Notes under the pieces: model-generated | Databases searched by the model: none | The model's input: the letters and a program-made list of their open reading frames with translations, nothing else | Told to the model about the DNA's origin: nothing | Assembly: GCA_964016885.1 (NCBI GenBank) | Contig: OZ024741.1 | Location: forward strand, 239,754,001 to 239,818,000 | DNA length: 64,000 nt | Direction: 5' to 3' | From: Eledone cirrhosa | Taxonomy: Eukaryota | Shown: piece after piece, positions 11,201 through 51,120 of the stretch | How the letters are laid out: each line of letters starts with the position of its first letter | How positions within the stretch are numbered: position 1 is the stretch's first letter | Position numbers and translations under genes: made by a program

Positions 11201-11590
11201 CCACCCCCTTCCACTGCAAACTGGGAGTTGGCTCAACTTATAATTTTCTATTATAAGTTGAGCCATCTTATGCAGCTTCATATGCAAATGAGATTAATCA
11301 CCTCATTTACATGGACGAGAAAACTATATATTCTTGACTGTTTTCAAGTCCAGCAGTCGTCGCAAGCGGTGGGAGGGACTGTCCTGACGAAGGCCAGTCA
11401 AGCCTGAAATGCATAGATAGTTGGCCCCCTTGCTTCTGCTGGACACCACCAGAGGGTGTTAAAAAAGCACCCAGCACTCACTGTAAATTAGGTTGGTGTT
11501 AGGAAGGGCATCCAGCTGTAGAAATCAAGCCAAAATCAGTTTCCGTCCCACCCTTGCAAGCAGGGAAAAGTGGACGTAAAATGATGATGA
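8300..11590 (+). mobile_element. RTE LINE family A, near full length (APE endonuclease + RT), internal deletions and stops
   Basis: ORF 8332-9552 APE (GTINV, CVQETRW, IAGDFN, SQIDFIL, SQHNLVV); RT fragments 9537-10674 (YADD); C-terminus 10743-11180; 3' UTR interrupted at about 11225-11460. Confidence 0.93.
11378..11421 (+). ncRNA. Minimal type-I hammerhead ribozyme
   Basis: actgtc-CTGACGA-aggc(cagtcaa)gcct-GAAA-tgca-TA-gatagt; 6-bp stem I, 4-bp stem II, palindromic stem III loop, intact core. Confidence 0.85.
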
Positions 11591-25734: not shown

Positions 25735-27230
25735 GGAAAAGAGTCAGGACCCCGACGGCTGAGCTCCGGCCGTTTCAACAGCTAGGTCTGAACTAACGCA
25801 GTAGTGTCAGGACAGTAGTAGTCTAGCTGAACTTACCAGGGGGTAATTCCATATATGGGCATGCAATGAGAGGGTAGTAGTATTATTATCATATCTAACA
25901 ATTCTAATAGTTGTTGTTATTCATGTCTATCACTGGGAGTGGTCAAAGATTTTGTAAACACAGTTAAATTCCTTCATAGCGGGGGGTGGGGGTGGCTGAA
26001 CTTGCCTGTAGAACAAGGGGAGGGAGTGAGATGACAATCTGGCCTGTGGATGCAGGCCAGTCATGTGTTAAGAGAGAATTCTATACAGCTATCTCTAAAG
26101 GGGGTGAAGAACTTATGATAAACAAGGAATATCTTAGAATTAATAGGTCAAGCGTCGGCTAGAAAGCAAAGCAAATATAATTTAATACAAAATTCCGAAT
26201 TAACAAGAATTTAGCTGTTAGTTCGTTCAATACACTAAAACAGCATCTCAAGGTAGTAATTTATCAAAATTATCATCCATAGTGATGCATCCCCCCCCCC
26301 CAAAAAAAGGGGAAAACACTGGCTATAGGTTCAGCCGGTGCTTTATATATTTAACAGGAGTGGAAATACTAGGGTTAATCTAAGGAAGAATGAAGCTGAA
26401 TATAATAGTGTAGACAAGCGATGAGCTGCCTAAGTGTAATTAGAGTGTGCAACTAATGAAGAAAAGTAAGAGAAGAAAAGGGGAGAGAAATAAGAAAGAA
26501 ATAGACTTTCGACTTCTACCTAAGTATGCTTGGGGTGGCCTCTATCTTAGTCTGCAAATAGGGAAAACAGTTACAGCCGAGGTCTACCCACCCGGCTCGT
26601 GAGGGGGTCTGAAGGTTAGGTATGTCCTATGCATTCTGTGTTTACATGAGGTAACAAGTTCATTTTTTTGTTTAAGAGTTGGTCCTTAGCAAACAACATT
26701 TGGATCGTTTCCTCCGAGCATAAATTACACGGACGGCGTCCTCCTGAGTAAGAGTTTGCCTTGGAAAGTATGCTCCAACTTAGATGGTAGGTGATGTTAT
26801 TGTCTTGGAGGTCCCAAATATGGCCAGAAAGTGCTGTTGCGTGTCGCCAAGCCGGGTTTCTAAATGTATGTCGGTGTTGGTAATACCGGGTCTTAAAATC
26901 GCAAGCAGTTAATCCGATGTAAGCCTTGTTAGAGTTTTCTGTCCTCACATTGCACTGGTAGACCACGTTACATTCTCGGCATCTGTTGTTGAGGGGGCAC
27001 GATGATATATCCGGACAGTTACACCTCCTAGTTTGCTCCCCACTGACATCGCTGTTGTCTCTTCTGTTAGAGAGGAGTTTTTCGTTGTTTGAAGAAACGA
27101 TGTTTTGTGCAAAGTTGGGTGTAGTGCTGTAGGAGAGTTTGACAGTGTTTCTGTTGATGACATTGTGGTAGCAGTGTTGTGGTGGGAAGTGTTTGTCAAG
27201 GAGTGTAAAAAAGATCCTCCCAGATGGGAA
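25735..27230 (-). mobile_element. Penelope-like element, 5'-truncated: GIY-YIG endonuclease plus 3' pLTR region
   Basis: VVYQCNV..KAYIGLT..FKTRYYQH..ATALSGHIWDL..CNLCSEE (26616-26970); hammerhead motif at the 3' end; (TA) flanks. Confidence 0.88.
25749..25844 (-). ncRNA. Type-I hammerhead motif (degenerate core) in Penelope pLTR
   Basis: acccc-CTGGTAA-..cagctag...ctagctg..-GAAA-cggc..gccg-TC-ggggt. Confidence 0.7.
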
Positions 27231-49435: not shown

Positions 49436-49561
49436 ATATATATATATGTGTGTATATATATATATATGTGTATATATATATATATATATATGTGTGTATA
49501 TATATATATGTGTGTATATATATATATATGTGTATATATATATATATATGCATATATGGTA

Positions 49562-49606
49562 AATATTGCTGATGAGTTGTAACAACAACGAAACTAGTTC
49601 AATATT
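49562..49606 (+). ncRNA. Minimal type-I hammerhead ribozyme
   Basis: aatattg-CTGATGA-gttgt(aaca)acaac-GAAA-ctag-TT-caatatt; perfect 7-bp stem I, 5-bp stem II, palindromic CTAG loop, GUU triplet. Confidence 0.9.
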
Positions 49607-49865
49607 CCTTGTCTGGCTTTCTGGAGAATAGAGGAAAGGTGTTTCCTCAAAAACCAGTATGACTCTAAAAACCGGTTTGTCTGTGTGTTTACATACAGAA
49701 TAGCTGGCCACTCACAGTAAAGTGACCAGTGAAAAAACTTGGTACATCTACATATGTATACGTGTGTGTATTCATATACATACTAGTATTTCAGTATACA
49801 TATATGGATGTACATCTTTAACTTAATTGTTTATATATATATATATATATGTGTGTATATATATA

Positions 49866-49994
<129 letters not shown>

Positions 49995-50009
49995 ATATAT
50001 ATATATGTG

Positions 50010-50045
<36 letters not shown>

Positions 50046-50055
50046 TGTGTATATA

Positions 50056-50130
<75 letters not shown>

Positions 50131-50135
<5 letters not shown>

Positions 50136-50786
50136 TGTATATACAGTGTATTTTGTAATACACTGTATGCTTCATTAAAAGCATTTCGAAGACCTTATGC
50201 TATTGTTTTAGAGTAGTGACAGTCTCACTTTAATTTTCAGCAAACAGGGGTGGTAAAGCTGACAGAGCTCTGTTTTGCACTTTTTGGTGCTTATCAAATC
50301 TAACTACTCCTCCTGTTTGCTGAAAATCATGAATGTTTGATTCTTATACAATTCTAGTAATAATCAAGAACTGATTATACAGAGCTGTTGCCTGTCAAGC
50401 AGATTTTCAAAATTAGAATTGGTGCTCTGAAATAGCGCTATATATATGAATGTATAAATAGTGTATTTTGAAAATCTGCTTGACCGGCAACCATTCTGTA
50501 TAATCAGTTCCTGATTATTACTAGAATTCTATATGAATCAAACATTCATGATTTTCAGCAAACAGGAGGAGTAGTTAGCTTTGATAAGCACCAAAAAGTG
50601 CGAAACAGAGCTCTGTCAGCTTTACCACCCCTGTTTGCTGAAAATTAAAGTAAGTGAGACTGTCACTACTCTAAAACAATAGCGTAAGGTCTTTGAAATG
50701 CTTTTAATTAAGCATACAGTGTATTGCAAAATACACTGTATATACATTCATATATATATATCGCTATTTCAGAGCACCAATTCTAA
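50131..50786. repeat. Fold-back inverted repeat (arms about 285 bp) with a hammerhead in each arm and a permuted spacer
   Basis: Arms 50131-50412 and 50465-50751; + copy 50577-50621: agct-TTGATAA-gcac(caaaaa)gtgc-GAAA-cagagctctg-TC-agct; minus copy 50257-50301. Confidence 0.88.
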
Positions 50787-50804
50787 TATATATATATGTA
50801 TATA

Positions 50805-51101
<297 letters not shown>

Positions 51102-51120
51102 CTATATATATATGTGTGTG

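Follow-up and report, generated by a model that had tools for sequence, protein, structure and literature searches.

The locus described here lies in a 64,000-nt stretch of Eledone cirrhosa DNA (the window) and is, with a probability of about 0.9, an inserted non-autonomous retrozyme mobilised by Penelope-like elements (PLEs). It consists of two arms standing back to back between (TA)n runs of ~300 nt per side (Table 1), and we favour, with some reservation, a single event in which a PLE RT/GIY-YIG enzyme acting in trans on a one-unit circular RNA put this pair into (TA)n. Judged from DNA alone, the repeat is a new member of the non-LTR retrozymes, and the PLE signature is unusually clear in its insertions. 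Elements of this class, a U3-A8 core and the signature of tail and inversion have each been described before. In the parts of the literature covered, the combination of PLE tail and inversion was not found reported for a retrozyme.

Positions 50466-50787 of the plus strand form one ~320-nt unit (1.00 unit in the self-comparison of the window), and the left side, on the minus strand, runs through unit positions ~262-322 and then 1-296. Unit positions are window positions minus 50465, and sense denotes the hammerhead strand. The 1.12 units obtained for the left side by self-comparison agree with the ~1.1 tandem units that a first-pass annotation had proposed from the letters of this DNA. It had also read the spacer as the reverse complement of the right-hand tail, followed by a second copy of the start of the left side, and both parts hold: 50412-50437 match the reverse complement of the tail (50762-50787) at 26/26 positions, and 50439-50473 repeat 50124-50158 with 91% identity (32/35) at a spacing of 315. 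The arms align with each other over 294 nt at ~94% and differ at 17/274 sites. Units of the family measure ~318-322 nt, and the local period of 315 arises because the left arm is short of 4 nt and its TA run is shorter. Site A, where the left arm merges into the flanking (TA)n, is the TA run of the unit itself; in such flanks a target-site duplication, if any, is invisible. The spacer is thus explained by an inverted pair with a one-sided 26-nt tail, i.e. by the insertion signature of PLEs. The first-pass annotation had missed this signature, and permutation of the copies is not free (see below). Junction overlaps similar in size to the six bases shared by the arms were seen again at other loci.

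Table 1. Features of the locus in window coordinates
Feature	Position	Strand	Basis
Left arm, ~1.1 units (unit ~262-322 then 1-296), ends at site A	50132..50470	-	self-comparison
Right arm, full unit (1-322), ends at site B with 26-nt tail	50465..50787	+	self-comparison
Microhomology at inversion junction, six bases common to both arms	50465..50470	.	sequence
Type I hammerhead motif, U3-A8 core, 4-bp stems I and II	50577..50621	+	predicted
Damaged left-arm hammerhead copy, predicted inactive	50257..50301	-	self-comparison
Long hammerhead-carrying stem (50550-50566 with 50630-50646), mirrored at 50233-50327	50550..50646	+	folding and two-sided changes between sister families
Hairpin immediately upstream of end A	50714..50741	+	predicted fold, self-comparison
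26-nt PLE-type tail between ends A and B	50762..50787	+	self-comparison, end mapping
Second tail copy inside left arm; as terminus, tail at right end only	50412..50437	-	self-comparison
Left (TA)n target run	49832..50131	.	sequence
Right (TA)n target run	50788..51113	.	sequence

A DNA search of the animal's own 3.0-Gb genome returned 2,083 candidates, 40 of which were scored. The exact 26-nt tail occurs 2,017 times in the genome, followed by T in 1,973 copies and by A, C or G in 44, and 828 exact tails are directly followed by the start of a unit, whereas reversed control patterns had 0 matches. The unit's own tail stood directly upstream in 29/30 loci picked on unit positions 1-95, the remaining locus (L041) being rearranged. 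With ~320 nt, a low GC content and no coding sequence, the unit fits the size range of non-LTR retrozymes (150-450 bp). Its longest stop-free run, read as a circle, is 54 codons, which bears out the earlier statement that it lacks coding capacity. Entire loci are accounted for by the unit, with nothing between the repeats that would resemble the internal region of an LTR-type layout; the RT and GIY-YIG ORF that defines an autonomous PLE was likewise not found there. Tandems are dispersed as arms of 2-3 units and as arrays of ~14 and ~17 units. The proposal that a hammerhead unit in tandem was copied more than once per insertion therefore stands: tandems exist, and none of the sampled copies, multi-unit arms included, continues into a long RT/GIY-YIG ORF, the outcome named beforehand as telling against it. 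The 17-unit array is ~10% heterogeneous and shows higher-order duplication at the DNA level, so that not all tandems are in need of a circle. A 163-nt deletion unit without hammerhead forms ~four tandem copies that end at site B in TA (L141:1908-2510); it is confined to this locus (4 junction matches), and one of its variants alternates every second unit.

Insertion ends were mapped in a first set of 55 loci (101 segments) and in a second set of 39 loci, hand-picked from pattern lists for paired hits. Six loci were left out before counting, three at the same place as another locus (L026, L038, L169) and three near-identical duplicates (L045, L052, L061); length distributions are biased, since loci entered either because they resembled the window or by selection from pattern lists. 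In the first set 89/101 segments have their 3' ends at two sites 26 nt apart, where ~10% would be expected by chance: 49 at site A (286-304; nominal 296) and 40 at site B (319-10; nominal 322), with TATA following directly after 36/40 of the B ends. The second set gave 66/81 segments ending at A or B. The 5' ends are scattered round the unit and not enriched at the predicted cut (4/101 at most 5 nt away), 1/101 3' ends lies within 10 nt of it, and the cleavage site is seamless in genomic copies. Permuted start points, as the first-pass annotation had expected, are thus found for the 5' ends and not for the 3' ends, and with the fixed A and B ends both random permutation and ends at the cleavage site are rejected. 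Since the 3' ends are fixed while the 5' ends spread, copying would begin at two sites 26 nt apart and halt anywhere. Unit positions 161-180, on the 3' strand of the long stem, hold 18 5' ends compared to 6-9 in neighbouring bins, possibly owing to RT stalling.

A divergent pair with an inverted 5'-truncated partner is present in 38/55 loci. When both sets are taken together, 42/48 pairs with two regular ends combine an A end with a B end, which leaves the tail one-sided (p = 5e-8; one of the pairs is a local duplicate), and at the arm junctions anything from a 24-nt overlap to a 28-nt filler is seen. The fixed two-site ends and the inversion correspond to the published tail/inversion signature of PLEs, whose insertions are described as partially tandem, with a 5'-truncated copy in inverted orientation and a tail on one side (PMC8557442). 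The anole PLE, a predicted dimer, has two internal start sites for RT, by which the tail is defined, and extends both strands (PMC11167929). A sister family, ~75% identical, has the same layout and the same two fixed 3' ends in 33/36 segments.

What kind of template was copied can be judged from variants that the copies of one locus have in common. Compared to copies of different loci, copies within a locus share minority variants ~3x and rare variants ~7x more often, and the stem II type agrees in 19/19 tandem and 29/30 inverted comparisons versus 1,813/3,692 between loci. Among 36 triplets (3,575 sites), 22 variants are present in all three copies, single-copy changes are level (86, 76, 79), as are two-copy patterns (7, 8, 4), and nothing pointed to a tandem source whose units had diverged beforehand; this test is limited by the 5-6% divergence of copies in one locus, and part of the sharing could stem from gene conversion. 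We infer that a variant found in every copy of an insertion must have passed a one-unit stage. The lineage variants shared among copies of one locus thus argue for a one-unit template, likely a circle, although a one-unit stage would be met equally by a circle or by homology-guided template switching. There is thus indirect support for the circle proposed in the first-pass annotation, which is plausible; support is better for the fixed ends and the inversion.

It is on this point that an alternative has to be considered in earnest. The same element and enzyme could have used a linear, uncleaved transcript of 1.x to n units. In this case RT would regenerate tandems either by reading young arrays or by a switch from one repeated end to another, and the role of the hammerhead would be confined to trimming transcripts. 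Published data on related systems speak for such a template or against a circle: in vitro, the anole PLE worked mainly on unprocessed RNA and inserted without requiring its hammerhead (PMC11167929), and 8/9 Xenopus dimers showed no cleavage in vitro (bioRxiv 10.64898/2026.07.22.740005). Multi-unit arrays do exist, and homology-guided switching would likewise be seamless and likewise homogenise the units. Plain tandem inheritance, however, would let subfamily variants drift apart, whereas they were in step in all 19 tandem comparisons. Moreover, the triplets show none of the heterogeneity of the 17-unit array, and the hammerhead-less deletion unit, present at one locus only, did not spread. On balance we regard a linear template as unlikely, if clearly less so than the following readings.

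The private variants that both arms share here, three beside the junction and two far off, would fit an inverted arm made by fold-back, either of a cDNA looping on itself or of a DNA-level hairpin after insertion. Fold-back fixes which arm extends further upstream, whereas the A arm is the longer one in 27/42 pairs and the B arm in 15/42; since either arm can be longer, we reject this improbable reading. Each arm at the locus also holds sequence that the other could not supply at its end, and the arms of one further locus (L068, see below) come from two different elements. Even less probable is a reading of the locus as a pseudo-LTR, the 3' remnant left by an autonomous PLE truncated at its 5' end, and not as an independent element. 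The geometry is the same as in truncated PLEs, to which opposite-strand hammerhead pairs 100-700 bp apart have been ascribed (PMC4209133), but a remnant does not account for the tail directly upstream of the unit, for the exact tails entering the unit start, or for multi-unit arms without ORF; among the 44 tails with A, C or G as next base, 0/30 examined reached a shared ORF. That the locus is an assembly artefact or a chance palindrome in AT-rich DNA is hardly credible. It has long (TA)n flanks and is spanned by no contig of three runs from one sample (possibly the source), the tail region being masked; against this, the arms differ from each other, the same architecture recurs at dozens of loci while the reversed controls do not match, and loose ends in the three runs of that sample fall mainly at the tail-to-start junction.

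The hammerhead motif also accords with the retrozyme reading. Cleavage is predicted after 50617 in the right arm (unit position 152), as in the first-pass annotation. The hammerhead which that annotation had assigned to the left side is indeed present as a copy, but a damaged one, with A in place of G12 (50276) and one mismatch in stem I (50299); the intact motif lies in the right arm. Stem III of the latter is a 12-nt palindrome (50605-50616) that can form 4 bp within one molecule. No Rfam family matched the window at gathering thresholds; below them the hammerhead gave a weak match (HH9, 23.6 bits versus a cut-off of 52, E 0.003). Matches to miRNA families at the E-value level were dismissed as TA-repeat or hairpin noise. 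U3 is kept in 94/94 and A8 in 93/95 copies, the full core is intact in 70/91 copies covering the hammerhead, and its 3' half has 858 exact matches in the genome. Stem II has C-G in 47 copies and T-A in 40, with few intermediates. The hammerhead of the sister family has C3/G8 and stems that are different yet paired, and in the long basal stem five or more pairs changed on both sides between the two families (one event each). Hence, with U3-A8 here, C3-G8 in the sister family and compensated stems, the hammerhead is under selection.

That the ribozyme sits on a longer stem, as annotated before, is confirmed by folding (z = -6.7 versus 200 shuffles). The unit as a whole also folds far better than its shuffles, both in linear form (z -7.9) and as the circle that the first-pass annotation had suggested to fold (z -7.3, 60 shuffles). 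The minimum-energy fold hides the core, the active hammerhead fold lies 3.6 kcal/mol above the minimum, and self-pairing of the palindrome is predicted at -20 kcal/mol. A hidden core together with a self-pairing palindrome is what a dimer-active motif would be expected to show. Hammerhead-like cores of the U3-A8 type were also seen near other PLE fragments (L069:9512, L216, L227, L235).

With animal non-LTR retrozymes the family shares the ~320-nt low-GC non-coding unit, the type I hammerhead, dispersed monomers to multimers, and coexisting PLEs (PMC7229834; bioRxiv 10.64898/2026.07.22.740005). Those retrozymes form head-to-tail arrays, whereas the copies here, known from DNA, are mostly arms of 1-1.5 units in inverted pairs; the word 'inverted' is absent from the available text of PMC7229834, and the link drawn between retrozymes and PLEs in the available text of bioRxiv 10.64898/2026.07.22.740005 is by homology and co-occurrence and not by insertion ends. 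Hydra-clade PLEs have a (TA)n target, a hammerhead, a partial tandem, an inverted truncated partner and a one-sided tail in common with the unit (PMC8557442), but they carry an ORF, and the tail of 26 nt here compares to 30-40 nt in that report and ~70 in the local Hydra family. Poseidon PAc of the green anole likewise has two start sites near a stem-loop and an AT-rich target; in contrast to our non-autonomous unit it is autonomous, with a hammerhead dispensable for insertion in vitro (PMC11167929). The minimal hammerheads of the Schistosoma PLE Cercyon resemble ours in U3-A8 replacing C3-G8 and in a palindromic stem III suggesting dimer action (PMC4209133), while the unit differs by a 4-bp stem II, a stem III that can form 4 bp intramolecularly, the long compensated stem and the missing ORF. 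MRC1-type PLEs of Chlamys are also non-autonomous with multicopy head-to-tail insertions; however, the 3' sequence of these PLEs is as a rule common to autonomous families, and canonical hammerheads are missing from most Chlamys elements (PMC8557442).

The genome contains many PLEs that could provide the enzyme. One autonomous family has intact 714-codon frames with the RWK, DKT and CxCx5C motifs of Hydra (identified by eye), and shows the same tandem, inverted and two-ended insertions into TA; a Pfam search with the 710-aa Hydra-type protein gave no family. Its copies at L103-L107 are young (~4.3 kb, arms up to 99.9% identical) and have a long, TA/TG-rich 3' region with two hammerhead-like motifs. 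Beyond TA-rich matches, the unit has no DNA homology to the Hydra families examined. Likewise, no shared pLTR or parent PLE was found in 30 Hydra-type loci, five longer Hydra stretches and 30 GIY-YIG loci, nor a shared pLTR in a few Neptune/Nematis-like loci, which together are a small sample of the PLEs of this genome. An ORF-bearing copy or parent was found neither in the flanks of 30 loci (all-against-all) or the longer stretches, nor among the loci of the sister family. The link to Hydra comes from a single chimera, L068 (1/94 loci), in which a 60-nt A-ended unit arm is joined, inverted, to a 5'-truncated Hydra-type copy with the same 3' end as two relatives. We take a Hydra-type PLE as helper to be a lead and not an answer. 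PLE fragments occur near 16/94 loci and, with the exception of L068, are read as neighbours in the same TA-rich DNA.

We propose that tandem copies are transcribed, and that their hammerheads would pair via the palindromic stem III and excise monomers. The monomer would be ligated, and since the lone hammerhead is predicted to fold off, the circle would persist. A PLE enzyme would then cut both (TA)n strands, and reverse transcription would be primed at A and, a second time, at B. Each cDNA would be of variable length, often beyond one full round, and joining of the two cDNA ends by microhomology or filler would yield the inverted pair with the tail at one end. It is more doubtful whether the enzyme belongs to the Hydra clade and primes at two sites, on opposite target strands, from one small hammerhead RNA circle. 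If it does, each locus would be a record of rolling-circle retrotransposition, and the family would show directly, from genomic sequence, that retrozyme circles are mobilised in trans by PLE enzymes with which they have no sequence in common. The entry of retrozymes into genomes and the way in which PLEs restore copies longer than one unit have both been stated to be open questions (bioRxiv 10.64898/2026.07.22.740005; PMC4209133; PMC7229834). The family offers a 320-nt substrate, mapped start sites and thousands of natural insertion products, and with young candidate helper ORFs in the same genome both questions become testable.

The window holds further hammerhead-like motifs and PLE sequence. 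A second, unrelated hammerhead motif with a canonical core at 49569 lies in the stretch 49558-49833 (+), which matches units of a 466-nt tandem array in L070 at 97% and probably represents another retrozyme-like family. A pattern scan gave a further hammerhead-like motif at 11384 (+), and a fragment of a Hydra-type PLE ORF is located at 26628-27221 (-) (tblastn E 4e-52).
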